From a virus (Duplodnaviria > Caudoviricetes), in the IMG/VR virus record IMGVR_UViG_3300044259_000151, positions 1 to 58,262 of that record: a DNA stretch of 58,262 bases. One strand, 5' to 3'. Below the pieces are notes generated by a model. The model worked only from the letters and a program-made list of their open reading frames with translations, did no database searches and was not told the origin of the DNA. Shown piece by piece: positions 2,776 through 57,518 of the stretch. The stretch's first letter is position 1; every line of letters starts with the position of its first letter. A program made the position numbers and the translations under genes.

Positions 2776-2821
2776 GTGGTTGCTCCAGCTCTGTTTTGAG
2801 CCCGGCAACCACCTGTCAAAA

Positions 2822-2901
2822 TGGCGGCCGGGCGAACGCGGGTTGACAGACCCAGTGGAGCACCAGGCAAGCCTTTCGGCTTCCGCACGTCGCCCGGCCA
2901 T
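2822..2901 (-). ncRNA. C4-like antisense RNA (P1 C4 / P4 CI type)
   Basis: Closing stem GCCGGGCGA/TCGCCCGGC; loops carry GCTCCA (2856-2861) and CTGTCAA (2843-2849), complementary to target pairs upstream (2949-2954, 2964-2970) and downstream (2782-2787, 2813-2819). Confidence 0.8.
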
Positions 2902-3037
2902 AGAAAAACGCGCCCGAAAGGAGCATCTTTCCATAGCGCGTTGACTGCGCTCCATCAAAAGGGCTGTCAAACCCCGTCGCGGATTTTGCCGCGACAACTC
3001 AATGGTGCGCCAGTTCGTCACAAATTGCAAGATGGCG

Positions 3038-5071
3038 TCAGAAGCCATCGGGATAGTCCTCATAAGGCGGCGCCGTGTGGTGCCCATCGCCCGCCTGCCC
3101 GCGGAATTCATCCTTCACGCGGATGCCGTAATAGATGGTGGCAGAGGCCTTGCCCTTGCGGAACATGTGCATCATCCCGTCCAAGCCCTTCCAGGTCTTG
3201 CGCGTCTGGTCCGGCAGGCGGCGGGTGAAAGTGGGCTGGCGGAATTCGGAAAGGCCCTCGCGTCTGGCAAAGCGCATGTAGGCGTTGAACAGATCCTCGG
3301 GCGTTTCCCGGTCCTGATCGGATCCGGTCACATGACAGGCATTGCGGATGAAGGCGCCGATCGGGTCGCTTTCCTCGCGATATTCGGCGGTCGCCGCCCG
3401 CACGCCGGCCGGCACGCCCAGCCCGTTTTCCAGATAATCCAGCGCGCCGCGCACCATCCAGGCAAAAATGCCGTGCCGCTCGGCCCGCAGCTTGCGCGGC
3501 AGGTCGCGATCCACCTCATCCTCGGGGATCTGGATTTCCCATGGCACCAGGTGCACCCGCCGCCAGATTCCGTCGCTGTCATCCTTGATGATCGGCTTGT
3601 GGTTGCCGGACAGGATGATCTTGAACTGCGGGATCAGCTCGAAGAAATCCTTGTTCAGGTGGCGCACCGGAATGGGCTCGCCGCCCGTCAGCGCCTTGAT
3701 CAGCGCATCCTTGAGGTGCACGCCCATTTCCGGCTCGGAGGCCGCCACAAGGCGCACGCCGGGCAGGCGGGCCAGATCGGGCGTGGCCTCCGCGCCGCTG
3801 CGGCGTTTCTCGCCGGCAAAGCTGTCGATCGACATCGAGGCCGCGTAATCGCCCAGGATATCCACCATCAGATCCACGAAGGTGGATTTGCCGTTGCGCC
3901 CCGCCCCATAGAAAAACAGCAGGCACTGCTCACCCGTCAGCCCCAGCAGGCAATAGCCCATGTAGCGCTGCAGGAATTTGCGGTAATCCACATCCGGCAT
4001 CACCCGCTTGAGAAACTGGTCGAACAGCGCGCAGCGCGCCTCAGGATCCACATCGATCAGGGCCAGCTTGGAAATCAGGTCGCGCGGCGCATGCCGGTCC
4101 AGCCGCACCTGCCATCGTCCCGTCCGGCCCGCGCCTTTCTGGCCCTCGGCCGAGGCCTCGGAACAGAAGAACCGCAGCGTGCCGCTCTGCGTGTTGATGG
4201 CATAAAGATCAGTGTTCAGCTGCTTCACATCCACCGAGCAATAGGGAATGGCCTCGCGCAGCATGTTGTCGATTTTCGAGGAGCCGCAGGCGCTTTTGGC
4301 ATGGCTGTGGCGCGAGGACATGCGCCCGGCGCGATCGTCCTCCACCTTTTCCATGGCCTTCACCAGCGCGGTCAGTTTTTCGAACTGCCGGAAATCCTCG
4401 GCGCTCCAGCCGGATGCCGCCTCGAGAAGCCGCTTCTTTTCGGCCTCGGCCTCGCGGCCAGCCTTGATGGCCTTCTTCAGGTCGGCAAGCGCCCTGTGGT
4501 CTGCCTCTTCCCAGCCGGCTTTCGGCGCACCGAGTTTGGATTTTTCAAGCTCGGCGTCCGCGCCAGCCTTGATCAGAGCATCCAATGCCTCGATCGATCC
4601 GGCGTCCACCTCTTCCCGGGCAGGCTTCGGCTTTCCCATCGCCTTCAGCTCGTCACGCGCCTGGCGCCCGGCCACGATCGTCTGCTTTTCCTCTTCCGAG
4701 CAGTCCAGCATGATTGCTTCGTCGTCGATGAATTCGGCCGTGCGATGCGCGAATTTGCGCACCACAGCACCGGATGTATCCTCCATCCAGCGCTGGCCAT
4801 CATAGCCATGCCAGCCCACATGCGTCACATGGCGCAGGAATTTGCCATAGCGAACGCGCAGCCGCTCGCCATTGCCAATATCCGTTTCCGGAAGCGCCGC
4901 GCATTCCTCCAGGATTTCATCCGGAGAAAGCTCAAGGTCCGCTTCCTCCGGCTCTGCCTCCACCACCGACAAGGGGTCCGGGTTTGCCGCATAAAGCGCC
5001 CGCTGACCGCTCGCCTGCTGCAACATGCGCAGCACCTGTTCCGGTATCCCCGGTTTGTTCGGGTCGATCAT
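3038..5071 (-). CDS. P4-family / D5-like SF3 helicase (primase-helicase C-terminal module)
   Basis: ETDIGNGERL D5_N motif; Walker A GAGRNGKST; IKALTGGEPI; GIWRR; C-terminal winged helix. Confidence 0.92.
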   Translation of the reverse strand: MIDPNKPGIPEQVLRMLQQASGQRALYAANPDPLSVVEAEPEEADLELSPDEILEECAALPETDIGNGERLRVRYGKFLRHVTHVGWHGYDGQRWMEDTSGAVVRKFAHRTAEFIDDEAIMLDCSEEEKQTIVAGRQARDELKAMGKPKPAREEVDAGSIEALDALIKAGADAELEKSKLGAPKAGWEEADHRALADLKKAIKAGREAEAEKKRLLEAASGWSAEDFRQFEKLTALVKAMEKVEDDRAGRMSSRHSHAKSACGSSKIDNMLREAIPYCSVDVKQLNTDLYAINTQSGTLRFFCSEASAEGQKGAGRTGRWQVRLDRHAPRDLISKLALIDVDPEARCALFDQFLKRVMPDVDYRKFLQRYMGYCLLGLTGEQCLLFFYGAGRNGKSTFVDLMVDILGDYAASMSIDSFAGEKRRSGAEATPDLARLPGVRLVAASEPEMGVHLKDALIKALTGGEPIPVRHLNKDFFELIPQFKIILSGNHKPIIKDDSDGIWRRVHLVPWEIQIPEDEVDRDLPRKLRAERHGIFAWMVRGALDYLENGLGVPAGVRAATAEYREESDPIGAFIRNACHVTGSDQDRETPEDLFNAYMRFARREGLSEFRQPTFTRRLPDQTRKTWKGLDGMMHMFRKGKASATIYYGIRVKDEFRGQAGDGHHTAPPYEDYPDGF

Positions 5072-5547
5072 GGCTTGCGCGTCCTCTGCGCGATCAGATC
5101 TTCTGCTGCGCGCAGGATGTCAGACGGCGAGGCAAGTGTGCGCGTCAGGCGCCAGTTTTCACCGTTCTCATCGCAATCCATAAATTCATTACGCACCAGA
5201 TTTTCCAGCGCATTCCAGGCACATTCCTCTTCCCACTCAGGCTCGTAATAGCCAGACATACTACCCAGCATCACAGTGCCCTTGCGCGGATAAACAGGCG
5301 GCCGCATGACGACATGCCGTCCCTTGCGCGTGCAGAAAACAATGTCGGCGCCGCGTGGCGTGCCCCAACTATTATGGCCCGTAAATGTCGGGCGGCACGA
5401 TCCTCTTTCCCAGTGCTTGCGATCGCCGATGAATGCGCCGTGGTAACTTCCCCAAGATTTGGCAAAAAACTGAACACGACAATCTCCCAACATAGGCAGC
5501 ATTGGCGCCGCTCGTTTGGACAACTTCTTAAGGGTCCTCAAATTCAT
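5068..5547 (-). CDS. Hypothetical phage protein
   Basis: 159-aa ORF coupled by ATGA overlaps on both sides; lower GC. Confidence 0.7.
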   Translation of the reverse strand: MNLRTLKKLSKRAAPMLPMLGDCRVQFFAKSWGSYHGAFIGDRKHWERGSCRPTFTGHNSWGTPRGADIVFCTRKGRHVVMRPPVYPRKGTVMLGSMSGYYEPEWEEECAWNALENLVRNEFMDCDENGENWRLTRTLASPSDILRAAEDLIAQRTRKP

Positions 5548-6962
5548 ATCGCCTCCCCCTTATGCAGCGCGGCGCTGATGGCGCCGGAAAGATCGGTCCC
5601 GGCCGGTGGCCAGAGCGTGAAAATCTCGCGGCCAGCCGCGGAAAGGCGCGCTTCGGCGCGGGCCATGGCGGCGGCTGTCCAGACCGGCTCGCTGTCGCCA
5701 TCCGCCACCAGCACCAGCTCCCGCACATGCGGCAGCACCGGCATAGCCTCATCCGGATCCTGATCGGCCTTCGGCACGGGGCCCGGCACGCGCACGGCCC
5801 GAAAACGCCCTTTCGCGTCCACCTTTCTCAGCGTCGGGTGGTCGAAATCCGAGGATGGATCGCGCGGACCTGCCAGATTTCCGAGATCGCCGCCGGTGCA
5901 GTAAAACGTGTCGGCGCGCCATTCCTCGGCGCCGGCGAAGGCCACCACGTTTTCCGCGCCCTCGCTCACCACCCATCGGGAAAGCTCCGGGCCACCGCAG
6001 ACCGGCAGAAGGCCGCCCTTTTTCGAGCCGCGCATCTTCTTGGTCGGCAAACGCTCGTAGAAACCGGCCTCGATATCCTCCGGCGCAGGCGGCGCGGTAT
6101 GCCCGCCATCCTCCAGCACCGGCAGCCCGGCCACGCGGCCATCCTTGGTCAGCGCCCAGAGAACGGGGCGAAACTTGCCGGCCGGGTTGCCGATCTCGAT
6201 CCAGGTCTGATGGCAACCGATGATCTCGCCGCTCATCCCGTCCACCCCGGGCCGCACGATCGGCAGGATCAGCGATGGGCCGGCATAGATCTGCATCGGC
6301 CGCCCCAGCGCATCCTGCCCGTGGTAATAGCCGGCGCCGCGGCGAAACCGCAGATGCTCGAACACCCCATCGGGTAATCGGAACTGCGTGCGCGCCTGGA
6401 AATAGGCCCGCGCCATGGCGCGCCCCTCGACAGCATCGGGCAGAATGTCCAGGCAATCCTGCGCATTCAGCCACAGCCCGCGCGCCTGGCGAATTTCCCG
6501 CTCGCGAAACACATTGGCATCGGCAGCCTCTTCCACGCGCCTCTGTTCAGCCAGCCGCTCCGTCTCGGCAATGCGCAGCGCCCGCGCCGCGCGCTCCTCG
6601 TCCGTCTCGCGCTCGCCACCGGCCGGAACCGGCTCCCCGAGAAGAATGGAACAGGCCTCCAGAAACTCGGCGCGCCGATGCAGATCAAGATGGCGATAAT
6701 GCGCCACCAATGACAGCGCATCCCGCCCGCCCTGCCCGCAGCCGCGGCAATTCCAGGCACCCTTCAGGCGGTTCACCGAAAACCGGTCATCCCCGCCACA
6801 GCGTGGGCACGGCCCCTGATATTCCGTGCGGCTGGCCGATTTTTTCTGTCCCTTTTTTTGCGGAGTTGCGCCGGGCAAGGGAACGCCGAGAACCTCGCAG
6901 GCGCGAATGAAGGATACGGCGCGGGCGTGGGTGATGAATTCGGTGATGGCTTCGGAGGTCAT
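5544..6962 (-). CDS. DNA primase module (Zn ribbon plus Toprim-like)
   Basis: GPCPRCGGDDRFS...WNCRGC primase zinc ribbon; VVSEGAEN and LVADGD Toprim-like acidic motifs. Confidence 0.85.
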   Translation of the reverse strand: MTSEAITEFITHARAVSFIRACEVLGVPLPGATPQKKGQKKSASRTEYQGPCPRCGGDDRFSVNRLKGAWNCRGCGQGGRDALSLVAHYRHLDLHRRAEFLEACSILLGEPVPAGGERETDEERAARALRIAETERLAEQRRVEEAADANVFREREIRQARGLWLNAQDCLDILPDAVEGRAMARAYFQARTQFRLPDGVFEHLRFRRGAGYYHGQDALGRPMQIYAGPSLILPIVRPGVDGMSGEIIGCHQTWIEIGNPAGKFRPVLWALTKDGRVAGLPVLEDGGHTAPPAPEDIEAGFYERLPTKKMRGSKKGGLLPVCGGPELSRWVVSEGAENVVAFAGAEEWRADTFYCTGGDLGNLAGPRDPSSDFDHPTLRKVDAKGRFRAVRVPGPVPKADQDPDEAMPVLPHVRELVLVADGDSEPVWTAAAMARAEARLSAAGREIFTLWPPAGTDLSGAISAALHKGEAI

Positions 6963-7681
6963 TCTGCCGCCTCCACCAATTTCTCCGCATAGCCGCCCCA
7001 TTGGGCAGCAGCTGCAGCCGCAATTCCAGGGAATGTGCGACTGCGTACCTTCCACCTGTCACGGCCAGGCGGCGCACGGTGTATTGCAGACCATTCCTTG
7101 TGCGCATCCGTGCCAGCCTTGGGCGGGCGCAGACGATTGGTCGGCACCAGCTTTGGCAGACCGCGAAGATAAAAGGATGTGGCCTTAAATGCAGGATCGC
7201 CAAACCACCACGGCTGAACCGTTTGCGCCGGCGGCGCATAGTTGACAATCCGCTCCTTGGCGTGGCGGTGCATGACCGGGTTTTCCATGACAACGCGGTC
7301 AATCGGCGCGTTCCAGCATGAAGAAAAAAGAGCTGCCCCATCATCCAAAGCTTTCCACATGAAAGCCAGACGGTCGGCCTCGCTCATGCGCGCAAAGGCC
7401 AAACGCTGCTCCAGCGAATATCCTTCACCGAGATTCTTCGGCGGCGCAGAAAGCCAGCGCACGCCGCTGTTGCATAGACGCGTGCAGGGCGGATGCATCA
7501 CCGCAAGCAAATCCCATCCCCCATCGAGCACATCCCTGATATCGCAAACCAAATGTCGGTTGGTTGCATCTTCGGCCGGCAGCAAATCGCATGACCAGAC
7601 GTCATGTCCCAGCGCCGCAAATGCACGCCGCATCACGCCGCTTGTTTCGCAACCGATGAGAACACGAAGAGATCTCGTCAT
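6959..7681 (-). CDS. Short phage DNA cytosine-5 methyltransferase-like protein
   Basis: VLIGCETSG, SCDL, HPPC catalytic motif, MENP, QPWWFG, RSRTFPGIA; start trimmed to MTRSLR. Confidence 0.75.
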   Translation of the reverse strand: MTRSLRVLIGCETSGVMRRAFAALGHDVWSCDLLPAEDATNRHLVCDIRDVLDGGWDLLAVMHPPCTRLCNSGVRWLSAPPKNLGEGYSLEQRLAFARMSEADRLAFMWKALDDGAALFSSCWNAPIDRVVMENPVMHRHAKERIVNYAPPAQTVQPWWFGDPAFKATSFYLRGLPKLVPTNRLRPPKAGTDAHKEWSAIHRAPPGRDRWKVRSRTFPGIAAAAAAQWGGYAEKLVEAAE

Positions 7682-8004
7682 CCCATCACCCCCCTCAAAA
7701 ACTCCGCCGCCTCGGCGGCATCCACCGGCCGCAGCCGGCCAGCGCTGCGCATGGCGTCCAGCGCCAGCAACATTTCGTCGGAAAGATGCGCGTGACCGCG
7801 CGCGTGGCTGGTCACCGTGAAGGTAAAGAACACCGGCGTGCCATGCCGCCAGCCGCGCAGATGATGCGGCTCGGTGACGATGCGCACGCGGCCAAGCGCC
7901 GAGGCGCCGCCAAATCCGCACGCCGCAATCACCCTCCTGCCATCAGCCACCGTCTCGGCCGCAATCAGCAGAATGCCGCCGTCATGGGATACCGTCTCAG
8001 GCAT
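7678..8004 (-). CDS. Hypothetical phage protein
   Basis: ORF from MPETVS, coupled to neighbouring genes. Confidence 0.6.
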   Translation of the reverse strand: MPETVSHDGGILLIAAETVADGRRVIAACGFGGASALGRVRIVTEPHHLRGWRHGTPVFFTFTVTSHARGHAHLSDEMLLALDAMRSAGRLRPVDAAEAAEFLRGVMG

Positions 8005-8877: not shown

Positions 8878-11513
8878 TCGGCGGCCTCGATCTGGTCTGC
8901 GGCCATCAGGTCGAACAGGCTCGGCATCGCCTTGTCGCGCGCCGCCGCCTCCACATATTTGCAGCCGTCCAGGAAATAGGCAGGGTTCAGCTCGGTGGCG
9001 ATCGCGCGGCGATCCGCCTTGATGGCGCGGTAAGGCACCGTCATCAGCCCGCCAAACGGGTCAAACACCACCTCGCCCTTCTCGGTATATTGCGCGATGC
9101 AGCGGTCGACGATGTCGAACTGCAGCGGGCAGAGATGCATTTCCCGGCCGGCCTGCGCCTGCAGCGTGTTCATGGACAGCATGCGCGCCACATCGGTCCA
9201 CACATCCTCCTGCTTGGAATGCGGCGGCAACAGCATGAAGGTAGACGGCAGCATGCCGCGCTCTTCCAGATGCTCGGCAATTCTCACGTGATGCTCGAAA
9301 TCATAGATTTCCGAGAGGCTGTAGCGCTTCCACAGCTTGAAAATCTGATGATGCTCCAGCCCCGCCAGATCCTCGATCGGCAACAGCCGGTCGCCGGAAC
9401 TCGGCATGTAGCCATGCGCATCCAGCTGCCAGCGCGCCCGGGAATAACCGGTCTCGCTCGACCATTTGCCGGATGCGCCATCCCACTGGCGCTTGTCCTT
9501 CTTCACCGGCCGATCCGCATAACCGTTCTCGGCCGAGCTGGGCGGCTTGCGAAACACCAGCAGATATTCCGGCATGCCGTTGCCCATCCGGCTGCCATCC
9601 TTGCACTGTTCGGACCAGCCCAGCCGGTAGGTCTGGTTGTTTTCCCGCACCACATCGGTGGTAATCGTCTTGCGGGAGAGAAAGGCAAAGCCGTGCCGCT
9701 GGAATGCGCGCACGCAATCATCCGAAAACGGGTAGACCGTCTGGAAACCGAGCCCCGTCATGCCGCCCGGCACGATGCGATCCTTGACATGAATGGCGGC
9801 AATGCGGCCGGGCGCCAGCACCCGCAGCAATTCCGGGATCAGGAAATCCATCTGCCGCCAGAAATGGCCGTTATCGTCCGTGTGGCCGAAATCGCAGTAA
9901 TTCGGGCTGTATTCGTACTGCGTCGAAAACGGGATCGAGGTCACGATCAGGTCGACACTGTTTTCCGCCATCTGCTGGCATTCCAGCACGCAGTCATTGT
10001 TGATCAGCCGGTATCCGTCGCCGGAAACCTCAATCCGCTCCACGCCCAGCGACCGCTGCAGCGTGGCGGCCATGGCGGCGGCCGAAAGCCCATACTCCTT
10101 GATGATGCCGGTCATGATCCTGCGTTGCTCCTCATGGCGTTTCCACTTGGCTTCCAGCACGTCGCGCACGGGGCGCTCGGCCTCGGTGTAGATCAGGTCC
10201 AGCCGCACCCGCCGCGTCTGCATGAAGCGGAAAATGCGATGCACCGACTGGATGAAGTCATTGAATTTGAAGCCAATGCCCAGATAGATGGCCCAGGCGC
10301 AGTAAGGCTGCAGGTTGCAGCCGCTGCCCATCATCGAGGGTTTGCCCGCCATTTCGCGAATGCGACCCTCGGAAAATCCGATGATCGAGGCCTCGCGCGT
10401 CTCCAGGTCCTGCGATCCATAGACCGTCACCACATCCGGGATCGCGGCCTCGATCGCCAGCCGCTCGGCCTCGAGATCGTGCCAGATCAGGCGGTGGTCA
10501 TCCGGCGCAAGCGCCCGCAACTCCATCAGCTTTTCAACGCGGGCCGGCAAGCTGTCGCGCTTTTCCCGCGCCGCATCAGACAGTGAGGCCGAGGCATTGC
10601 GCAGCAATCGCCCCTGCCCGTTCTTCTCCGCGCCGGCGCTTGCATGGTCGGCCGGAAGCTCGTGCCAGTAAACATCCATGCCCGGCAGGTCATAACCGTC
10701 ATCGGAAAAGCCGAGATCGGACGGACGCTCCACGAACAGCCCCCAGCTTGCCACCCACAGCCAGAACTCCCGCTCCTTGTGCGGGTGGATCGTCAGCGTG
10801 TCAGCCTTTTCCGAATTGCGCTTGAAAAATCTGGTCTTGGATTGTCCTACGTCCATCACCTCCAGAAAGGCGGAATAGGCCAGAAGCTCGATATATTCGT
10901 TCGGGCTCGGCGTTGCGGTGGCAACGAACTTGAACCGCAACCCATCGAACAGCCGCATGAATTCGCGAAACGTCTTCGATCCGCCAAATCCGCGCAGGCA
11001 GGAGGCTTCGTCAAGGCTCGCCGCCGTAAACAGGCGCGGGTCGATCTTGCCATCGCGCACCGGCTCGTAATTCGTCACGCACAGGCCAGTGTCCGGCGCG
11101 GCCTCGATCGACCGCAGGAAGGTCAGCGCATAGTGTCGGCTGTCCGGCCGCGCTGCGCGCCAGGCTTTCAGGGCAGCCCGCGTCTCCGCGCTGATTTTCG
11201 GATGATCGCCGGTTTCCAGCACCTGCGCATCCCGGCGAAATTCCTGCCGCACGCCGAGCGGCGCCACGATCAGCGCCCGGCCGCCAAAGCGCTCCAGCAC
11301 CAGCCGCAGGATCTCCAGCTGCATCATGCTCTTGCCAAGGCCGAAGGCGGCAAACACCGCGCGCCGGCCGCCGCGGCAGGCCCAGATCACGATGGCCTTC
11401 TGATGCGGCAAAAGGATGGGGTTCACATCCTCCGGCGCCACGTCAAACCCGCCATCGGCGGCCATCTGAACCTTGGCTTTCAGAAAATCGAGATAATCCA
11501 GCGCGGCCATCAT
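8874..11513 (-). CDS. SNF2-like helicase fused to an N4/N6 (beta-class) DNA methyltransferase
   Basis: FGLGKS, LDEAS, TATPSPN, GCNLQ and QSVHRIFRF helicase motifs; VDLIVTSIPF, HLCPLQ and VFDPFGG MTase motifs. Confidence 0.88.
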   Translation of the reverse strand: MMAALDYLDFLKAKVQMAADGGFDVAPEDVNPILLPHQKAIVIWACRGGRRAVFAAFGLGKSMMQLEILRLVLERFGGRALIVAPLGVRQEFRRDAQVLETGDHPKISAETRAALKAWRAARPDSRHYALTFLRSIEAAPDTGLCVTNYEPVRDGKIDPRLFTAASLDEASCLRGFGGSKTFREFMRLFDGLRFKFVATATPSPNEYIELLAYSAFLEVMDVGQSKTRFFKRNSEKADTLTIHPHKEREFWLWVASWGLFVERPSDLGFSDDGYDLPGMDVYWHELPADHASAGAEKNGQGRLLRNASASLSDAAREKRDSLPARVEKLMELRALAPDDHRLIWHDLEAERLAIEAAIPDVVTVYGSQDLETREASIIGFSEGRIREMAGKPSMMGSGCNLQPYCAWAIYLGIGFKFNDFIQSVHRIFRFMQTRRVRLDLIYTEAERPVRDVLEAKWKRHEEQRRIMTGIIKEYGLSAAAMAATLQRSLGVERIEVSGDGYRLINNDCVLECQQMAENSVDLIVTSIPFSTQYEYSPNYCDFGHTDDNGHFWRQMDFLIPELLRVLAPGRIAAIHVKDRIVPGGMTGLGFQTVYPFSDDCVRAFQRHGFAFLSRKTITTDVVRENNQTYRLGWSEQCKDGSRMGNGMPEYLLVFRKPPSSAENGYADRPVKKDKRQWDGASGKWSSETGYSRARWQLDAHGYMPSSGDRLLPIEDLAGLEHHQIFKLWKRYSLSEIYDFEHHVRIAEHLEERGMLPSTFMLLPPHSKQEDVWTDVARMLSMNTLQAQAGREMHLCPLQFDIVDRCIAQYTEKGEVVFDPFGGLMTVPYRAIKADRRAIATELNPAYFLDGCKYVEAAARDKAMPSLFDLMAADQIEAAE

Positions 11514-11734
11514 CGCACCTCCAGCACAAGAGGCGCGGCCGGATAACGCTGCGGCCACCGCTGCGTCAGCTGCTGGTCGGAACGCCAGTCCTTGCCGCAT
11601 TCGACATAGATCTGCGCCACACGGTCTTCCGCCGCCTCGGCACGTCTGCGATAGATATCAATGGTTTCCGAGCCATAGGACCGGTCAGCCATGGCATCCA
11701 CATAATCGGCAATGGTGATCCCGCGCCGCATCAT
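11510..11734 (-). CDS. Hypothetical phage protein
   Basis: Coupled small ORF in the cro operon. Confidence 0.55.
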   Translation of the reverse strand: MMRRGITIADYVDAMADRSYGSETIDIYRRRAEAAEDRVAQIYVECGKDWRSDQQLTQRWPQRYPAAPLVLEVR

Positions 11735-12395: not shown

Positions 12396-12852
12396 GGAGA
12401 GACCCCTGAAAATCGGTCAAGGAAAAAGTGACAATCAATCGTTTCCGTGAAGACGGGCGCGATCCGCGCTACGTCAGGTGCATCGCAAGCTCATGGAGGC
12501 CCGCATGCACAGATCTGAATGGCAGAATGGCCGCGATGCCGCTGCAGCCACCCCTGTCCTGACGCGCCTGTCGGCATCCGCGCTCCGGGTATTCCTGGCT
12601 GGCCGGCAGGGCGCAGGCGATCACCCTGCCGGCCGAGCATCGCGGCAGCCCGAAGGCAGTCCGCCATGCCGCGAAAAATGCCCCGGCGCCTTGGGAGGAG
12701 GCTGGCGCCGGAGCCTTGCCGCCGGCGGAGACGAGGCCACGGCGACAAGAGGAGAAGAAAAAGGCCAGCCGGGCGCAACAGAGAAACACCCGGCTGGCAG
12801 GTGGCACCGGAGAGGAAACAACCGGCGCGGCAGGGAAGAAACAAAGGCCGCA

Positions 12853-13104
12853 TCATTCGGCAGCCTCCGGAATTTTCGAAACAGGGCGCGGCACGCCATC
12901 CGGCCACGCAACACCTTCCGGCCAATGATCGGAAAGCCAGCGCATCGCCTCGCCAAACCGGCGAACACCGATATCCGAACCGCGCCGGATGCCGGCGATG
13001 CGCTTGCCATCGGAAAACAGGCGTGACGACAGCGTCGCCTCGGCAATGTCAGCGCCGGCGCAAAAGGCTTCGATCACGGTCAGCAGTTGGTCGATCTGTG
13101 TCAT
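12853..13104 (-). CDS. Cro-like small regulator
   Basis: Divergent from cI; ATLSSRLFSDGKRI...WLSDHWPEG..WP pattern. Confidence 0.75.
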   Translation of the reverse strand: MTQIDQLLTVIEAFCAGADIAEATLSSRLFSDGKRIAGIRRGSDIGVRRFGEAMRWLSDHWPEGVAWPDGVPRPVSKIPEAAE

Positions 13105-13111
13105 GGCGGCG

Positions 13112-13190
13112 AATATGCGGGATATGTCCCTCATCGTCAACGGGAAATGTCCCTCTGCCGCATTTTTTCAAAATAAGGGATATTTCCCGC
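13112..13190. promoter_or_regulatory. OR-like region: three repressor operators and the cro promoter
   Basis: GCGGGATATGTCCCT (13117-13131), CGGGAAATGTCCCT (13141-13154), AGGGATATTTCCCGC (13176-13190); minus-strand TTGACG-17bp-CATATT (13140-13112). Confidence 0.8.
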
Positions 13191-13820
13191 ATGTCTTACA
13201 CGGCCGAACAGATCGTCAAACGGGTGGAACAGCGCGCCAAGCAGCTGAAGATGTCAGCGCGCCGGGTGTCGCTGGAAGCAGGCTATGGCCCGGACCTGAT
13301 CCGCGACTGGAACCGCCCGAAAGCGCCTTTGCCGCGGCTGGACAGCCTGATGAAGGTGGCCGAGGTGCTGGGCGTTCGCGCCGGCTGGCTGGCCTTCGGC
13401 GAGGGAGACAATGATAATGCCGCACAGGAAAACACGCGCCGCGTGCCGGTTATTTCCTGGGTCGCCGCTGGCCGCTTCTCGGATGCGCCGGCACAGGATG
13501 ACATTGAGCCTGCCAGTCACATTGATGTCAGCGATCTGCCGCGCGGCCGTTATTTCGGCTTGCGCATCATCGGCGACAGCATGAACCGCGTGGCGCCCGA
13601 AGGGTCGATCATTATCGTCAACGCGCAGGATCGCGAACTTATTCCGCGCAAATACTACGTTTTCCAGAACGGGCATGGAGCGACGTTCAAGCGCTATATG
13701 AACAATCCGCCGCGCCTGGAGCCCTATTCCTACAACCTTGATCACGAGACCCTGCAGGTGGACAAGGATACGCAGGTCATCGGCCGTGCCGTGCGGATCA
13801 TTTCAGACGTCGAGATCTGA
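13191..13820 (+). CDS. cI: CI-like repressor (HTH plus S24 autopeptidase)
   Basis: N-terminal HTH; VPVISWVAAG cleavage site; IIGDSM catalytic Ser; TFKR catalytic Lys; no SD before the ATG, possibly leaderless. Confidence 0.92.
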   Translation: MSYTAEQIVKRVEQRAKQLKMSARRVSLEAGYGPDLIRDWNRPKAPLPRLDSLMKVAEVLGVRAGWLAFGEGDNDNAAQENTRRVPVISWVAAGRFSDAPAQDDIEPASHIDVSDLPRGRYFGLRIIGDSMNRVAPEGSIIIVNAQDRELIPRKYYVFQNGHGATFKRYMNNPPRLEPYSYNLDHETLQVDKDTQVIGRAVRIISDVEI

Positions 13821-24376: not shown

Positions 24377-24652
24377 ATGACCGCCCGCCGACCAGCGCAA
24401 ATCCCGCCGGGCACATGGCCGCCGCGCATGATGGCGGAAATGGCTGCAGGCTATTGTGGCGAGCGGCATGTGGAGGATTTTCTGGCGCGCGTGGGCACGG
24501 TCTATCCGAAACCGCGCACGCAGGAGACGACACGCCGCAAATTCTGGTATCGCTCTGATCTCGACAAGGCGCTGGGAATTGGCGCAGATAACCAGGTCAA
24601 TGATCTGGGGGCAAAATTCCGTGAGGCGATCCGGGAAAAGCGGCGTGGTTGA
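24377..24652 (+). CDS. xis: Excisionase-like DNA-binding protein
   Basis: WPPRM.AEMAAGYCG...YPKP...WYRSDLD; immediately upstream of int. Confidence 0.7.
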   Translation: MTARRPAQIPPGTWPPRMMAEMAAGYCGERHVEDFLARVGTVYPKPRTQETTRRKFWYRSDLDKALGIGADNQVNDLGAKFREAIREKRRG

Positions 24653-25826
24653 ATTGCCGAAATTCGTGCACCGCGTCAGGAAGACGCGCAAACGCGGGGC
24701 GCCCATGGTCTATACCTTTTATACCCGCCACCGGAACACGTCGGCAGCCTGGCCGTCGCTGGCCCTGCCGGATCCGCTGGAACGCGAGTTTTCCCGCCGG
24801 CTGGCAATCTGCGAGCAGATGGAGCGCGACGGCAGGGGGTTTACGCTGGATGGCGTCCGCCTGCCGGATCACAAGCACCCGGATTTCTGGCGTGAGGCCG
24901 AAAAGGCGCTTTCGGCGCTGGAAAAGCGCGGCCGAGAGAATCGCAGGGATTTCCACGCGCTGGTCGAGGCGTTCCAGAGCGAAAACAACCCGCACTGGTC
25001 CAGCCTTGCCGCATCCACCCGACGCGGCTACGCGGCGAGCGGCAAAATGGTGATCGAGATCTGGGGGGATGATCTGCCGGCCGAGCTGTCAACGGTCAAT
25101 GCGCAGGAGGCAATTGACGCGCTCGGCGAAACGCCCGCGACCGCCAACCAGTTCCGGGCCTACCTGTCCCGCCTCATGGCATGGGGCATCCCGCGCGGCT
25201 TTTGCCACGCAAACCCGGTCGAACACACGGAAAAAATTCCGGGCACGGAGCCGTGGTCACCATGGCCGGAATGGGCCTTCGAGATCCTGCTGCAGCACGC
25301 TCCGTTTCACCTGCAGCTGATTGCCATGAGCGCCTTTTTCACGGGCCAGCGCCAGGGCGATGTGCTGCAAATGCGCCGCCCGAAAAGCGATGACGCCACC
25401 ATTGAGGTCCGCGCCCAGAAAACCGGCCGCACCGTGTGGGTGCCGATCCACTCCGCCTATCGCCGGTGGATCGAGCGCGCCCCGAAGGACGGCATCATGC
25501 TGCACGCCGCCGTGCGCCAGCCGAGTTACAAGACGCCGGACGGTTTCCGCTCGGAATGGCAAAAGCTGATGGACAAGCCCGAATTCAAGCCGTTCCGCGA
25601 ACACCGCATTGTCTTTCACGGCCTGCGCAAAAATGCCGTGATCAATCTGCTTGAGGTCGGCTGCACGGAGGCCCAGGCAGGCGCCATCTGCAACATGTCT
25701 TCGCAAATGGTGCAGCACTATGGCCGCGAGGTATCGCTGCGCGCACTGGCGCGAGACGCCATGAAGCTGATGGAGGAGCGCTGGCCGGAGATCGAGCCCC
25801 TTGCCATGCGCGATCCGCGCCGGTAA
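24645..25826 (+). CDS. int: Tyrosine integrase
   Basis: TGQRQGD (R), QKTG (K), HGLRK (HxxR), QHYG (Y); GTG start overlapping xis; adjacent to attP. Confidence 0.93.
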   Translation: MVELPKFVHRVRKTRKRGAPMVYTFYTRHRNTSAAWPSLALPDPLEREFSRRLAICEQMERDGRGFTLDGVRLPDHKHPDFWREAEKALSALEKRGRENRRDFHALVEAFQSENNPHWSSLAASTRRGYAASGKMVIEIWGDDLPAELSTVNAQEAIDALGETPATANQFRAYLSRLMAWGIPRGFCHANPVEHTEKIPGTEPWSPWPEWAFEILLQHAPFHLQLIAMSAFFTGQRQGDVLQMRRPKSDDATIEVRAQKTGRTVWVPIHSAYRRWIERAPKDGIMLHAAVRQPSYKTPDGFRSEWQKLMDKPEFKPFREHRIVFHGLRKNAVINLLEVGCTEAQAGAICNMSSQMVQHYGREVSLRALARDAMKLMEERWPEIEPLAMRDPRR

Positions 25827-25840
25827 CCCGGAAATCACGC

Positions 25841-26075
<235 letters not shown>

Positions 26076-26080
26076 TTCGC

Positions 26081-26095
26081 GTTCTGTTCATGTTC
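26081..26095 (+). promoter_or_regulatory. Alphaproteobacterial LexA (SOS) box
   Basis: GTTC-TGTTCAT-GTTC matches GTTC-N7-GTTC; upstream of the ORF at 26217. Confidence 0.65.
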
Positions 26096-26216
26096 GCGGT
26101 TGCAACATCAGACTCGACGTGATCGCCAGTCCATGCCATATCATCCGCACCCGATAGGCGGCGGGTCGATTATCAATCATGACCGTATGCGGCCGGTCTC
26201 TGCGAGGAGACGCGCC

Positions 26217-26513
26217 ATGCAGCGCATTGTCGGCAATTTAAAATTTACCAAAGTCCAGATCGGCGATCCGGATCTCAACACCCTGACCGAGCATGTCGAT
26301 CTGCTGGCATAGTGCCGCGCCTGCGGCCATCGGAAAATCTTGCCGAAATCCGCCATCGCCAGCCGCCGGCTGCACCACAAGCGCTTGAGCGTCATTGCCC
26401 GCCACATGACCTGCACCGCCTGCGGCGCGCGCGATTGCGACCTCACATCCGGCATTATCGTGCCGGCCGATGGCACATCGACGATCAGCGAGTTTCCCGA
26501 TGGCGCCCAATAA
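26217..26513 (+). pseudogene. Small Zn-ribbon protein gene interrupted by an in-frame TAG (26310-26312)
   Basis: GAGGAG RBS; MQRIVG...HVDLLA*CRACGHRKIL...MTCTACGARDC...DGAQ reads on in the same frame to TAA at 26513. Confidence 0.7.
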
Positions 26514-26515
26514 AA

Positions 26516-26628
26516 ATACGCTGTCAGCGCATTTAGTGGCTTGCGCATAATACGCTGATGGCGTATAACAAACTCATCAGCACGGAGCTGATGAGGGCGC
26601 CTCGCCGGAACAGGGGCGGAGACGGAAA
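26516..26628 (+). promoter_or_regulatory. Operator/promoter/structured-leader unit, copy 1
   Basis: Palindromes ATACGCTGTCAGCGCAT (26516-26532) and ATACGCTGATGGCGTAT (26550-26566); TTGCGC-17bp-TATAAC; two leader hairpins. Confidence 0.85.
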
Positions 26629-27009
26629 ATGACCAATCTGATCGCAGAAATCTCCCGCATGATTGCAGGCGCCAAGGCCATGGGCGCACCGATGTTCGGC
26701 CTTGAGGAGATCCTTGTTGCAGCCGAGCGGGTCTCGGCCAGCATCGACCGGGCCGAGGCACGCCGCGCCGCCGGCGATTATGACAACAGCCTGCCTTTTG
26801 CGCATTTCGTAGCCGATGCCGAGCAGGAAATCGCCGACCTGAAAATCATTGAAACCGCTGCCCGCGCCGCATGGGCCTTCGTGGTTTGCAAGTACCTGCC
26901 GCATGCGCTGCGCGATCTCTATGCCAACGACATCACCGAGGGCCTTGGCAAGGACCTGAATGACGCCATCAATACCGGCATTGCCGTTGGAAAGCGGTAT
27001 CCCGCATGA
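26629..27009 (+). CDS. Hypothetical protein (first gene of the accessory operon)
   Basis: GGAG RBS in the leader; 126 aa. Confidence 0.75.
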   Translation: MTNLIAEISRMIAGAKAMGAPMFGLEEILVAAERVSASIDRAEARRAAGDYDNSLPFAHFVADAEQEIADLKIIETAARAAWAFVVCKYLPHALRDLYANDITEGLGKDLNDAINTGIAVGKRYPA

Positions 27010-27725
27010 GCCAGGTCGCAAACCCGATCATCAACGCCATGGCCGAACAGGCTATGGCAACAGACTGGCCCATCAGCGGCGTCACGATCGCCTCGCCGCA
27101 GGTCACCGCCTCCCCCATCCTGGCAATAAACTGGGCCATGATGCTGCCGGACGATGCGCCTGAGACGCCAACCGGCGTCAGCGCCAGCGTGCTGTCGCGC
27201 GTGCCGCCATCGGTCGTCGCGCTGCCCGCCATGGTGCAGATGGAGCCGCTGATCATCGAGGCGGCATGGGCCTATGGCGCCTGGGATATACGCCGCACCA
27301 GCATTCCGGCCTCGTTTTCCGGCGCAATCCCGCCTTACCTTGACACCCTGCCGGAGATCATCCGGCGGGAGGGCTATGTCAGCTGGTATTTCCGGCCGAT
27401 GCTGCGCGGCCCGGAAAGCCGGGCCAAAGCCAATGCCGCTCTGGATGTGACGCTCAATCGCTGGACACTCGGCCGCGATACGGCGCCGCCGGACATGCGG
27501 TTTTCCAGGATCCGCGAGGGGCAGGAAACGATCATCAAGCTGGGCAAGGGGGAAAAGACCGAAAGGCCGGTGCGCCGGCCCACGCCGAGAAATCTGGCGA
27601 CAATTTTGCAGCGCGGCTATCTCGGTCGATTGCTGCGGGCGGCAGGCCTTGACGACACATTGCCGGCCGATCTCACAAAAGACCAGGCATCCGCCTGGAT
27701 TGACAGGCTTAAGGGCAAATCATGA
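27006..27725 (+). CDS. Hypothetical protein with a C-terminal AT..Q..YL..L...LTK.QAS..ID.L helical motif
   Basis: ATGA coupling; C-terminal motif visible in the translation. Confidence 0.7.
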   Translation: MSQVANPIINAMAEQAMATDWPISGVTIASPQVTASPILAINWAMMLPDDAPETPTGVSASVLSRVPPSVVALPAMVQMEPLIIEAAWAYGAWDIRRTSIPASFSGAIPPYLDTLPEIIRREGYVSWYFRPMLRGPESRAKANAALDVTLNRWTLGRDTAPPDMRFSRIREGQETIIKLGKGEKTERPVRRPTPRNLATILQRGYLGRLLRAAGLDDTLPADLTKDQASAWIDRLKGKS

Positions 27726-28180
27726 GCGCCTATCTCAACCATATCACGCTGGAGACAGGCCATGTGCACAGATCGCCGCGCGCGGACATCTCGGCCGAAA
27801 CGCTGCAGTTTGTCACGCCGCACCTGATGCGGGCGATTGAGCGGGGAGAGGACGTCATCCTTGCGCCCGGCGAAACAGGGGAGTTTGTGTTGCGGGCCAC
27901 GGCGGCCGGTGCATTTTTGCTGGCCACGGCGATCTCCAGGCGGCACGGCCCGCTGATCACGTTTGGCGTCGCGCCGAGATCCCGCAATGCCGGCAGATTA
28001 TGGGAGAGCCTGCATCAGGGCCGCACTGTCGAGACGCATAGGGGCGACGTGCCGGCCGCGCCGTGGCTGGCGGCGCGGATGGAAACCACCAATGTCTTGG
28101 CCTTGGCCTCCGCGCGGTGGCTGGCGGATTACAGCCGGTGCTTGGCATGGGCATGGATCGAAAGCCGCAAGGCAGGCTGA
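27722..28180 (+). CDS. Hypothetical protein
   Basis: YLNHITLETGH..RSPR N-terminus; ATGA coupling. Confidence 0.7.
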   Translation: MSAYLNHITLETGHVHRSPRADISAETLQFVTPHLMRAIERGEDVILAPGETGEFVLRATAAGAFLLATAISRRHGPLITFGVAPRSRNAGRLWESLHQGRTVETHRGDVPAAPWLAARMETTNVLALASARWLADYSRCLAWAWIESRKAG

Positions 28181-28184
28181 AAAA

Positions 28185-28296
28185 ATACGCTGATAGCGCA
28201 TTTTGCGGTTGACGGCGATACGCTGTCAGCGTATAACGGTCTCATCAACAGAGGTTGATGCGGGCGCCTCGCCAAGACAGGGGCGGAGACAAGACC
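28185..28296 (+). promoter_or_regulatory. Operator/promoter/structured-leader unit, copy 2
   Basis: ATACGCTGATAGCGCAT (28185-28201) and perfect ATACGCTGTCAGCGTAT (28218-28234); TTGACG-17bp-TATAAC; leader homologous to copy 1. Confidence 0.85.
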
Positions 28297-28641
28297 ATGA
28301 TTACCAAGTCCAAGATTTTCAGCGCAGCATGGGCCGTCGCAAAGCAGGGCGCCGCAAAGTTCGGCGGCTCGGCCCGCCAGTATTTTGCCGAAGCGCTGCG
28401 CATGGCTTACGCCGCTGTTGCTGCCCGCGCCGCCAAGGCTGCCGCTCCGGTCATGACGACAGCCGCAAAGATCAACGCGCTGGCCAACATCCTGATGTCC
28501 TGGTCGCGCCCGGCTCGCAAGAGCTTTGCCTGGACTTTTGTCATGGATAATGCCGAGCGCGTTGCTCGTTTTGGCGAAAAGACCACGTTTTCCGCCAAGC
28601 AGATCGAAATCATCAACGATCTCTATGCAAAATACGCTTGA
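28297..28641 (+). CDS. Hypothetical basic protein
   Basis: KSKIFSAAW..AK...YFAEALRMAY N-terminal motif; SAKQIEII C-terminal motif. Confidence 0.75.
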   Translation: MITKSKIFSAAWAVAKQGAAKFGGSARQYFAEALRMAYAAVAARAAKAAAPVMTTAAKINALANILMSWSRPARKSFAWTFVMDNAERVARFGEKTTFSAKQIEIINDLYAKYA

Positions 28642-28657
28642 TCAAGAAAGGCAAGAA

Positions 28658-28885
28658 ATGAGCGATCGCGACAAAATTCAACTTGCAGCAACACTTGCGG
28701 CAGAATGCCGCGCATGGCGCGACACGCATGGCATCACGGCAAAGCGCGGCGCGGAAATGCTGGGCATCCCGCACCGGACCTTGCAAAACGTCGAGCAATC
28801 CCGCGGTTTCCCCTACCCAGATCTCTTGCGCATTGGCATGGCCGCAATTTCTGCTGGCCTCACTCCTCCCCCGTCCGCACCGTAA
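28658..28885 (+). CDS. Small XRE-type HTH regulator (Aca-like position)
   Basis: CRAWRDTHGITAKRGAEMLGIPHRTLQNVEQSRG HTH; last gene of the cassette. Confidence 0.8.
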   Translation: MSDRDKIQLAATLAAECRAWRDTHGITAKRGAEMLGIPHRTLQNVEQSRGFPYPDLLRIGMAAISAGLTPPPSAP

Positions 28886-29144
28886 AGCGCTTGATCAGCG
28901 GTCCCGCCAGCCAGGGGCTGGCGAAGGCCACCAGCATGGCGCCGGCCATGACCCTTTCGGGGTTGGCAATGTCCCATCGGAAAAGCTCGACGGGCACAAA
29001 ATAGAGAACAGCGCCGGCGATGATCGAGAACAGAAGCCGACACAGCATGTCGAGCAGGTTTTTGGGTCGCACGAACAACAGTCCGGCGACGGCCCCGAGA
29101 AGAGCGCCGAAGGCCTTCAGAAACAACAAGTCAGCGTTGATCAC
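28860..29144 (-). CDS. Small multi-pass membrane protein (holin-like)
   Basis: GTG start; three hydrophobic segments; end of the late operon. Confidence 0.6.
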   Translation of the reverse strand: MINADLLFLKAFGALLGAVAGLLFVRPKNLLDMLCRLLFSIIAGAVLYFVPVELFRWDIANPERVMAGAMLVAFASPWLAGPLIKRFTVRTGEE

Positions 29145-29692
29145 CCTCCCCGCTCCCTCGGCCAATCCCATCGCGCCTTGGAGGCGCGCGTCGGCCGGAA
29201 TCGCGACGTGGCGGCAGAGACAAGAGGCGCAGAAGCATGACGGCCATGACGCCGAGGCAGATCCATCCCATCGGCCCAGTCCCTCACACCACGATAGCCA
29301 ATCATCAGCAGAGCAGCGGCCGTGATTGCCTCCAGAATGGAGGAATAGGCATCCACGGGCAGCGGCGGTGGGGTCCCGCTCAAAATTGCAAGCGTCTGGA
29401 TGAAGCTGACCATCGAGGATGTCGCGAACGGCACGAACAGCCTCCAGTAATCCCGCTCGTCCTCGTGCACCGCATGGATGAAATAGGCCAGCGCCGCATC
29501 GCAGAGGAAGGTCACGGCAGGCGGCGCCCACGGCGCATCGGTCAGATGCGCCCGCGTGAAAGCGACGGACGCCACATAGGATAGCGCAATGCCGCAAACC
29601 CACAGCCGGCCATGCGGCACGCGCCGCGCCGGCCACCAGGTAAGGAAGGCAAGCACGGCCAGCGCAAAATGATACCAGCCGAGCCCCAGCAT
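29141..29692 (-). CDS. Multi-pass membrane protein
   Basis: About five hydrophobic segments; TGATG coupling. Confidence 0.65.
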   Translation of the reverse strand: MLGLGWYHFALAVLAFLTWWPARRVPHGRLWVCGIALSYVASVAFTRAHLTDAPWAPPAVTFLCDAALAYFIHAVHEDERDYWRLFVPFATSSMVSFIQTLAILSGTPPPLPVDAYSSILEAITAAALLMIGYRGVRDWADGMDLPRRHGRHASAPLVSAATSRFRPTRASKARWDWPRERGG

Positions 29693-57180: not shown

Positions 57181-57197
57181 GCGCGGTATGACCTTGG

Positions 57198-57518
57198 TCA
57201 GGCGGCCGGCTGGCTCTGCTGCCACAGAGATTGGCGCAGCAAGTATCCCTCAAAAGCCCAAATCTTGTTGCGGGCATTGTCGCGAGCGATCTTGCGGCCG
57301 ATCTCTTGATCAAAATTTTCCGGGCTGGCGGCCGCACTTTCCCCAGTCACGCAAAAGCCGTTCTGCAGCGTCAGGCAGCACACCGTTAGCGTCGTTCCGT
57401 GGAAAACATGGTATTGCTCGCCGGCAATCTGCGCGTCAATCAGCTCCGGCGTCAGCCGCGGCGCCTTCAAGCCCTTGGCCTGAATTTCCGCCTCGATGGC
57501 CTGTTCATCTTTCACCAT
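57198..57518 (-). CDS. Gp49 / Sf6 gp66 family protein (candidate nucleotide-signal sponge)
   Basis: APRLTP..ID..I, LTVC.L.LQNGF.VTGESA.ASPENFD.EIGRKIA..NA..KIW..EGY.L. Confidence 0.85.
   Translation of the reverse strand: MVKDEQAIEAEIQAKGLKAPRLTPELIDAQIAGEQYHVFHGTTLTVCCLTLQNGFCVTGESAAASPENFDQEIGRKIARDNARNKIWAFEGYLLRQSLWQQSQPAA

Follow-up and report, generated by a model that had tools for sequence, protein, structure and literature searches.

A two-operon accessory cassette with a candidate Aca-like repressor and a two-hairpin leader RNA in a temperate phage of Rhizobiales-type hosts

The virus record IMGVR_UViG_3300044259_000151 of IMG/VR (Duplodnaviria; Caudoviricetes) is a complete record of 58,262 bp with a CheckV completeness of 100%; the whole stretch was analysed and is referred to below as the window. 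It belongs to a temperate phage of Rhizobiales-type hosts and carries, between 26512 and 28885, a cassette of four open reading frames (ORF1-ORF4) followed by a gene for a small helix-turn-helix (HTH) protein. An earlier note on this DNA had likened the cassette to anti-CRISPR (acr) operons, which are repressed by a downstream anti-CRISPR-associated (Aca) HTH protein. The locus raises the question of what controls these genes and what they serve. The answer favoured here, with somewhat better than even confidence and on comparative grounds, is a two-operon accessory cassette close to the phage attachment site (attP), in which one XRE-like HTH protein would act as an Aca-like autorepressor. All five ORFs are present as the note gave them, and the features of the cassette are as follows.

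26516-26532, operator O1 of unit 1, ATACGCTGTCAGCGCAT, upstream of the −35 hexamer, with an A-tract before it and CATTT after it
26541-26569, plus strand, promoter 1: TTGCGC (26541-46), 17-nt spacer, TATAAC (26564-69)
26550-26566, operator O2 of unit 1, ATACGCTGATGGCGTAT, in the −35/−10 spacer and overlapping the first three bases of the −10 hexamer
26572-26631, plus strand, leader RNA copy 1 (covariance model R1, 67.4 bits, E 1e-19; fold z −3.1)
26629-27009, plus strand, ORF1, 126 aa
27006-27725, plus strand, ORF2, 239 aa, with a novel domain at the N-terminus and a DUF3072-like helical motif at the C-terminus
27722-28180, plus strand, ORF3, 152 aa, alpha/beta, its start overlapping the ORF2 stop
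28185-28201, operator O1 of unit 2, ATACGCTGATAGCGCAT, upstream of the −35 hexamer
28209-28237, plus strand, promoter 2: TTGACG (28209-14), 17-nt spacer, TATAAC (28232-37)
28218-28234, operator O2 of unit 2, ATACGCTGTCAGCGTAT, a perfect palindrome in the spacer, overlapping the first three bases of the −10 hexamer
28240-28299, plus strand, leader RNA copy 2 (R1, 62.8 bits, E 3e-18)
28297-28641, plus strand, ORF4, 114 aa
28629-28638, plus strand, operator half-site AAAATACGCT with A-tract, a third exact copy, inside the 3′ end of ORF4 and 20 nt before the HTH start
28658-28885, plus strand, HTH protein, 75 aa, with the motif W-R...LGIP-RTL--VEQ-RGF-YP-LL, the proposed repressor of both promoters

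Paired operators and the HTH family

The two promoter units form a direct repeat of about 110 bp (28181-28290 against 26512-26623; 77% identity, E 1.6e-17), promoter 1 being predicted to drive ORF1-3 and promoter 2 to drive ORF4 and the gene for the 75-aa HTH protein. Each unit contains two copies of a 17-bp palindrome with the consensus ATRCGC-N5-GCGYAT, one upstream of the −35 hexamer and one in the spacer, at start-to-start distances of 34 bp in unit 1 and 33 bp in unit 2. A search with up to three mismatches returned eight strand matches, all at the four sites and none elsewhere in the 58,262 bp; 0.69 matches are expected in shuffled sequence, and eight were reached in none of 100 shuffles. 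These counts confirm the four palindromes and their placement, as first proposed in the note. A separate operator scan of the window listed two one-mismatch background matches outside the four sites. The half-site AAAATACGCT occurs in three exact copies against 0.04 expected, and the copy at 28629, described earlier as half-site-like, proved to be exact and a half-site only. The description of the promoters as near-consensus stood as regards the hexamers and the 17-nt spacers, both of which are present, but was generous in its wording: the −35 hexamer of promoter 1 agrees with the consensus at four of six positions, and the final T is absent from both −10 hexamers. A consensus promoter scanner listed neither promoter because the −10 hexamers end in C.

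The Pfam scores of the HTH protein are below the cut-offs (HTH_31, E 5.7e-4, 20.6 bits against 27; HTH_3, 16.7 against 23), and the homologue in locus L041 scores 26.4 bits against the same cut-off of 27; the assignment is weak on these scores but is backed by the homologues. Single-sequence searches of viral contigs and genome contigs were empty, a 5.8-billion protein index returned only the protein itself, and the exact two-operator pattern had no match in the viral contigs. The protein looked like an orphan because exact-word search methods are limited; tblastn and profiles later found its family. A tblastn search of all the loci then fetched gave L041 only (50% identity, E 1e-9), a profile of the two sequences led to a third homologue in L059, and a hidden Markov model of the three matched 423 cluster representatives at E ≤ 1e-3, 96 of them at E ≤ 1e-10. 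The family is sizeable and apparently undescribed, and falls into two size classes: stand-alone proteins of approximately 60-90 aa and proteins of approximately 137-187 aa with a C-terminal HTH. A conserved N-terminal region (...PL...LDQRKAAAAL...) is found in or before the HTH in L061, L062, L068, L070, L080 and L041; it accounts for the longer class (here approximately 140-190 aa) and is missing from the protein of the window. The public gene call places the HTH start at 28625 (86 aa), with no visible ribosome-binding site.

A profile of 24 family members identified 21 viral loci, 19 of them new. In 17 of the 21 (15 of the 19 new loci), the 1.5 kb before the HTH gene contains the palindrome with at most one mismatch, usually as paired sites 32-35 or 15-17 bp apart. 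With up to two mismatches, 42 sites were counted in 31.5 kb of upstream sequence and 15 in 64.45 kb elsewhere. The operators of L062 are identical to 28218-28234 of the window. L041, which had been fetched for its leader and not for its HTH protein, is the sole other locus among 58 with ATACGC-N5-GCGTAT, located in the promoter spacer. In L059, two sites 33 bp apart accompany a TTGCGT/TATACC promoter that lies downstream of an integrase gene and upstream of two small ORFs and the HTH gene. The order of a small gene and then the HTH gene, as in ORF4 and the HTH protein, recurs in L041 and L059; the HTH proteins of the three loci match each other at E 1e-13 to 1e-18, and their cargo proteins have no mutual match. 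The pairing of the HTH family with ATRCGC-N5-GCGYAT is established by this comparison, and the position of the operator across the spacer and the −10 hexamer points to repression. The acr-aca-like architecture with a terminal HTH repressor, as the note had proposed it, is well supported by the same comparison, with its 17 of 21 loci, conserved regulator and unrelated cargo.

In L041, the 78-aa cargo ORF and the HTH gene are inserted between genes for Mu F-like and Phage_tail_S (Mu G family) proteins and the head maturation protease. Between the cargo ORF and the HTH gene, at 11513-11543, lies a GC-rich hairpin with TTTTT after it, which could be an internal attenuator, reducing the dosage of the regulator relative to the cargo.

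Two other readings of the regulator can be weighed on this evidence. The palindromes might be bound by the CI-like repressor that the phage encodes in 12519-13817, or by a host factor, with the 75-aa HTH protein unrelated to them. This is barely credible, as the palindrome tracks the HTH family in those 17 of 21 otherwise unrelated viral loci and is absent from the rest of the window bar the two background matches. ORF4 and the HTH protein might instead be a self-repressing toxin-antitoxin pair in the higBA order, with the toxin gene first and the HTH antitoxin gene second. The gene order fits, palindromic operators over promoters are typical of such operons, and the HTH protein is weakly similar to the HigA-2 and HipB antitoxins (E 0.03 to 1.6). 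However, ORF4 matches Phage_Gp111 and related PHROGs and no toxin family, the genes before the HTH gene are unrelated in the window, L041 and L059, and a second, three-gene operon uses the same operators, so that a toxin-antitoxin pair is very improbable.

A two-hairpin leader RNA

Each promoter unit is followed by a copy of a structured leader. Copy 1 consists of hairpin 1 (26573-26595), hairpin 2 (approximately 26595-26607) around the invariant GCGCCUCG, then CAGGGGC, the Shine-Dalgarno (SD) sequence GGAG and the ATG. The consensus is 5′-AUCARC-loop-GYUGAU, a short stem closing on GCGCCUCG, CAGGGGC and the SD sequence. The covariance model R1 finds exactly two copies in the window, the next best match scoring 9.4 bits. 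Rfam at gathering thresholds returned only C4 for the whole window and, at E ≤ 10 over 26000-29200, only a chance miRNA match (E 4).

The structure is supported by an alignment of 15 distinct leaders with two hairpins. One pair of hairpin 1 covaries, being A-U in seven leaders, G-C in seven and G-U in one, and never A-C, with all four combinations allowed by the search pattern. The flanks of GCGCCUCG in hairpin 2, which the pattern left free, alternate between C-G and G-C (10/4 and 8/6, plus one U-G). Of all cells in the alignment, 96.6% are paired, against at most 48.5% in slid-register controls, and 18 cells are changed on both sides against 6.4 in shuffles, a value reached in 0 of 500.

A pattern derived from the leader matched 31 IMG/VR contigs. 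Thirteen were judged by inspection to be true units, in which promoter, palindrome and motif are followed at about 25 nt by an ATG; the remaining 18 lie in coding sequence or have no such context. The true units are in L019, L022, L025, L029, L031, L032, L034, L035, L036, L041, L043, L044 and L048, of which L025 repeats L010 and L036 repeats L022. The leader also occurs in L008, L010, L017 and L051 and, by the covariance model, in four of the 19 new HTH loci (L061, L062, L065 and L068). In 151 genomes of the family of genome G004, R1 gave nine matches at E ≤ 1e-3; three were accepted by eye (G004, G435 and the variant G466), and the other six were rejected, since the promoter and ATG context is absent. 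The carriers are phages and prophages with alphaproteobacteria-like GC content.

The leader was found behind at least 10 different operator sequences, with different regulators or none, and it can therefore be regarded as a module of its own, with a partner other than the local HTH protein. The invariant AUCA lies 6 nt after the −10 hexamer, which would place hairpin 1 at the 5′ end of the RNA, and stabilisation of this end by the leader is plausible; CCUC in hairpin 2 may interact with the SD sequence. A peptide (MRAPRR...) encoded by the leader was also weighed as an explanation of its conservation and rejected: its reading frame agrees with that of the ORF in unit 2 and L008 but not in unit 1, and the covariation of the flanks of the stem is that of an RNA. 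A wider proposal, which we hold to be rather doubtful, is that the leader is a portable cis-acting RNA of alphaproteobacterial phages, marking operons that fire at entry and working through a conserved host or polymerase partner and not the local repressor. Examples of what it could do are stabilising the 5′ end, gating translation through the CCUC loop and the SD sequence, and modifying RNA polymerase in the manner of put.

The put RNAs of phage HK022 are two stem-loops just past the early promoters that act in cis on RNA polymerase. The leader likewise occurs in two copies per genome, directly downstream of a promoter, with two hairpins. Unlike put, it abuts the ribosome-binding site, and it has no sequence similarity to put and no Rfam match; the likeness serves as a lead only.

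Cargo genes and the ORF2-ORF3 cassettes

None of ORF1-4 matches an anti-defence, defence or other functional family in Pfam, PHROG, PADLOC or NCBIfam; with the last two, the cassette proteins gave nothing beyond a weak HTH_VI match of the HTH protein. ORF1 has no family match and no homologue among the loci fetched. The N-terminal half of ORF4 (residues 8-66) is a Phage_Gp111 domain (PF07410; E 3.7e-10, 40.8 bits against a cut-off of 27.1), and the protein also matches phrog_29806 and related PHROGs, all of which, like Phage_Gp111, have no known function. A literature search for Gp111/PF07410 gave unrelated drug papers only, among the matches listed, and one for DUF3072 found no paper. The blastn search of 26000-29000 and the tblastn searches of ORF2, ORF3 and ORF4 had no match among GenBank phages. 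The third-position GC bias of ORF4 and the HTH gene (28297-28885) is weaker than that of ORF1-3, so that a crude picker based on this bias favoured antisense ORFs; the weaker bias may indicate recent acquisition.

The C-terminus of ORF2 scores 24.4 bits against DUF3072 (PF11272), below the gathering cut-off of 27.5, and a precomputed annotation table assigns PF11272 to ORF2 and to all nine of its homologues, which share 46-57% identity and come from Rhizobiales-type sources, including Mesorhizobium sp. Root157. The only family match of ORF3 is phrog_28365 (E 3.2e-5), a PHROG with no known function; its homologues were found in L008, L009, L010, L015, L018, L034 and L044. AlphaFold2 models, each built on the protein's own alignment, reached a predicted local distance difference test (pLDDT) of 81.1 for ORF2 and a pLDDT of 89.1 with a predicted template modelling score (pTM) of 0.86 for ORF3; a complex prediction for the two gave no verdict (score 0.00). 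Foldseek searches of the PDB at E ≤ 1e-3 returned nothing for either model (best 0.078 for ORF3 and 0.039 for ORF2). The best wide VIA-align matches were below the level that the tool regards as meaningful: Z 5.2 for ORF3, to a GNAT-like chain (root-mean-square deviation (rmsd) 3.5, 88 aligned), and Z 4.6 for ORF2 (rmsd 4.3, 78 aligned). One viral protein in BFVD resembles the ORF3 model (E 2.2e-7, TMq 0.66), and the ESM Atlas was uninformative for ORF3 (score ≤ 0.82, structural TM ≤ 0.34). The C-terminal helices of ORF2 align weakly with the C-terminal domain of Red-beta (8tfu, Z 4.3, rmsd 2.5, 46 aligned; 6m9k, Z 4.2, rmsd 2.0, 44 aligned), the domain that binds the single-stranded DNA-binding protein (SSB) and lambda Exo.

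Related cassettes were fetched through the ORF2 alignment from three genomes (a Pararhizobium metagenome-assembled genome (MAG), a Mesorhizobium MAG and Mesorhizobium sp. Root157), one IMG/VR provirus, a duplicate of the Root157 locus to judge from its identical match coordinates and sequence, and four metagenome contigs. In these loci, ORF2 and ORF3 are always paired with overlapping stop and start codons, and a small gene always follows ORF3, its kind differing by locus. The promoter layout is retained, and the spacer palindrome is specific to each locus.

L008, gene after ORF3: 70-aa protein; spacer palindrome CAGCAAATTGCTG
L009, gene after ORF3: 84-aa protein; spacer palindrome ATACGGATAAAATCCGTAT, in two identical repeated units
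L010, gene after ORF3: 84-aa protein; spacer palindrome AATGGGTATAATATGCCTATT
L015, gene after ORF3: ribbon-helix-helix (RHH) protein, RHH_1, above the Pfam cut-off
L017, spacer palindrome ATGCAC-N6-GTGCAT, twice
L018, gene after ORF3: 66-aa protein

The small last genes of L008, L009, L010 and L018 appear by eye to encode DNA-binding proteins. The pattern suggests that regulator-operator pairs are exchanged on a shared chassis. The ORF2 family is rare: its profile matched one of 401 genomes of the order of G004, namely the query G004 itself. ORF3 also travels without ORF2: its homologue in L034 belongs to a leader-driven operon (4674-7806) that runs divergently from the terminase and portal genes and also encodes a 252-aa unknown protein, a PAPS-reductase/DUF3440 protein and a ParB-like protein. 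In L044, two leader units (4382-4441 and 3517-3576, minus strand) share the palindrome AATCGACA-N4-TGTCGATT, located upstream of the −35 hexamer only, and the second operon starts with a protein with the motif GSEKQ..WA..IR, which is likewise the first gene product in L009 and L017.

Position at the probable attachment site and comparison with acr-aca systems

The cassette follows the integration genes of the phage.

24456-25826, tyrosine integrase gene (phrog_1, E 3.3e-26)
25941-25988, plus strand, 3′ fragment of a tRNA gene, ending ...CACCCACCA, read from the sequence just downstream of the integrase gene

ARAGORN found no complete tRNA in the window; since an integrase gene is followed by this partial tRNA, the fragment is the probable attP core. 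The cassette lies just beyond it, between attP and the convergent late genes, and after integration it would form the first block of the prophage, adjoining the tRNA. L009 has a matching layout, with a tRNA-Arg directly upstream of the related cassette; provirus G001, the sole integrase relative found, does not carry the cassette.

On the reading of the HTH protein as an autorepressor, both promoters would fire when the phage DNA enters a cell that lacks this protein. The transcripts would begin at or near AUCA and form a 5′-terminal hairpin and then a hairpin presenting GCGCCUCG before the ribosome-binding site. As the last gene product of operon 2, the HTH protein would accumulate and bind the palindromes as a dimer, probably with cooperativity between the paired sites, and RNA polymerase would be blocked at both promoters, giving a burst of expression and then a low, self-limited level in the lysogen. 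Comparison of loci shows that the HTH family and the operator go together, that the architecture is modular and that the leader is structured; the kinetics of the burst, the dimer and its cooperativity, and the transcription start we infer. Our first guess at what ORF1-4 are for is counter-defence or a takeover of the host on entry, held at well below even confidence; the note's reading of them as immediate-early inhibitors of host defences found no direct support.

The layout invites comparison with the acr-aca systems of Mu-like Pseudomonas phages (Aca1) and Pectobacterium phage ZF40 (Aca2). In both there are inverted repeats at or overlapping the −35 and −10 hexamers, and, as in acr-aca operons, small variable cargo genes come first, a small HTH gene comes last and the regulator is conserved. 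One HTH relative, that of L041, lies between a Mu G-like gene and the head protease, the slot which Pawluk et al. (2014, PMC3993853) give for the anti-CRISPR region of Mu-like Pseudomonas phages. Unlike those systems, no cargo gene of the cassette matches a known Acr, the HTH protein has an operator of its own, repression is predicted, and HTH relatives also head operons with an integrase gene and a superinfection-immunity gene. The operator strings do not occur in PMC9410906.

Feussner et al. (NAR 2026, PMC13551039) predict control of neighbouring operons by Aca proteins via repeated DNA motifs. They report structured 5′ untranslated regions (UTRs) with an RNA motif bound by the cognate Aca (Aca1, Aca2), and an RHH protein, Aca14, that can act as an Aca. 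The cassette resembles the systems described there in having one regulator gene for two adjacent operons, each with repeated DNA motifs and then a 5′ UTR hairpin, and the related cassette L015 has an RHH protein where the window has the HTH protein. It differs from them in that the same leader stands behind at least 10 operators with different or absent regulators, which indicates that the leader is not specific to this HTH protein. The main text of PMC13551039 contains no Rhizobiales terms.

Several observations count against an Aca-like autorepressor with counter-defence cargo. The HTH protein has no sequence similarity to a solved Aca (13 PDB matches, E ≤ 10), and single-sequence and profile searches of PDB chains (E ≤ 1 and E ≤ 10), which cover solved structures only, listed no Aca. 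Four of the 21 HTH loci have no palindrome at up to one mismatch: L072 has only a two-mismatch variant, and L065, L071 and L076 have none. The −10 hexamers both end in C, and promoter strength is assumed; a search of sequencing runs found no RNA run carrying the stretch, and two DNA runs from sediment metagenomes that do carry it may be its source. The partner of the leader, judging from its distribution, is not this HTH protein. The cassette lies at the prophage end, where morons expressed in the lysogen are also common. In about seven loci, moreover, the HTH gene is the first gene of an operon running into a tyrosine integrase gene. This second layout, of operators, the HTH gene, zero to three small genes and the integrase gene, is found in L074 (2417-4638), L064, L072, L078, L079 and L081, and the L074 operon carries Imm_superinfect (PF14373, E 2.2e-19) and then a confirmed integrase. 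Pfam searches with 20 operon proteins of this layout gave one Imm_superinfect, one integrase, one sub-threshold match and 17 without a match. Examination of the HTH neighbourhoods, the check that the note had called for, has given unrelated cargo, one acr slot of Mu-like type (L041) and one Imm_superinfect operon (L074). The integrase and Imm_superinfect operons imply that the HTH family is not specific to anti-defence cargo and that the circuit serves accessory operons near the attachment site in general; in our reading, these operons share a need for firing at entry followed by low expression.

These operons and the position of the cassette are also what a lysogen-expressed moron cassette would lead one to expect, with ORF1-4 acting for the prophage-bearing cell in superinfection exclusion, prophage defence or host modification, and the HTH protein keeping their expression at a steady low level. 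The attP-proximal end becomes the prophage end adjoining the tRNA, the cassette has its own promoters between the convergent late genes and the attachment site, and the L074 operon of the same HTH family combines Imm_superinfect with an integrase. Like morons and superinfection-immunity cassettes near attachment sites, it is a self-contained unit at the prophage end, convergent with the late genes. Against this, no ORF matches a PADLOC defence model apart from the weak HTH match, none of ORF1-4 is by eye a predicted membrane protein, the L041 relative lies in the head-gene block at the acr position of Mu-like phages, and a repressor site covering the −10 of strong hexamers fits a burst and shut-off as well as steady expression. 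A typical moron is a single gene with a terminator, expressed constitutively or independently of CI; the window cassette instead has a dedicated putative autorepressor, paired operators and a conserved leader. A moron cassette is a minority reading, the next most probable after the favoured one.

The second layout bears as well on a role in DNA transactions or integration control, in which ORF2 and ORF3 would act on DNA, SSB or recombination, and the HTH protein would be an int-operon regulator controlling a neighbouring module. The approximately seven loci with the HTH gene, small genes and an integrase gene in this order, the confirmed integrase of L074, the alignment of the ORF2 C-terminal motif with the Red-beta domain and the operon that the ORF3 homologue of L034 shares with PAPS-reductase/DUF3440 and ParB-like proteins are consistent with it. 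The structural scores are nevertheless below the tool's meaningful level, the integrase gene of the window lies upstream, across attP and outside both operons, and the cargo is unrelated among the HTH loci. Such a role is unlikely, and an autorepressed accessory cassette is preferred.

New anti-defence genes are found mainly by way of Aca-type regulators, and to our knowledge almost all known Aca families come from gamma-proteobacteria and Firmicutes. What is new here is a form of the Aca-type circuit in which the regulator family is new, the operator is defined and the leader RNA is absent from Rfam. The 423 representatives of the HTH family, the clear 17-bp operator and the paired-site geometry make regulons readable from sequence. 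The leader, which is not tied to the regulator, marks no fewer than a dozen other phage operons with uncharacterised genes; if the portable-leader proposal is true, it would provide a regulator-independent handle for mining early or anti-defence genes, in addition to a new Aca-like HTH family. ORF2 and ORF3 are a conserved gene pair with confident predicted structures and no clear match to a solved fold. If the cargo is counter-defence, phages of Rhizobiales would be opened to guilt-by-association mining. If it is not, the Imm_superinfect and integrase operons would make Aca-like circuits general controllers of an entry burst, which would bear on the use of aca genes as markers.

Other parts of the window were assigned by PHROG and Rfam matches, the PHROG matches also including a helicase/methyltransferase, a sliding clamp and tail fibres.

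1781-2503, minus strand, gene for the Ant anti-repressor (PHROG)
2820-2905, minus strand, C4 antisense RNA (Rfam, 52.9 bits), upstream of the Ant gene
in 12519-13817, CI-like repressor (PHROG)
55378-57222, minus strand, large terminase (PHROG)

The C4 RNA and Ant constitute an immunity module of the P1/P7 type in a phage that also encodes a CI-like repressor. Upstream of the cassette (26037-26513), a 91-aa ORF ends at a TAG (26310-26312), after which the same frame continues into a zinc-ribbon-like stretch with CxxC...CxxC; this may be a broken gene or a case of read-through. L010 encodes a 106-aa CxxC...CxxC protein near its cassette (4110-4430, minus strand), which by eye resembles this stretch.

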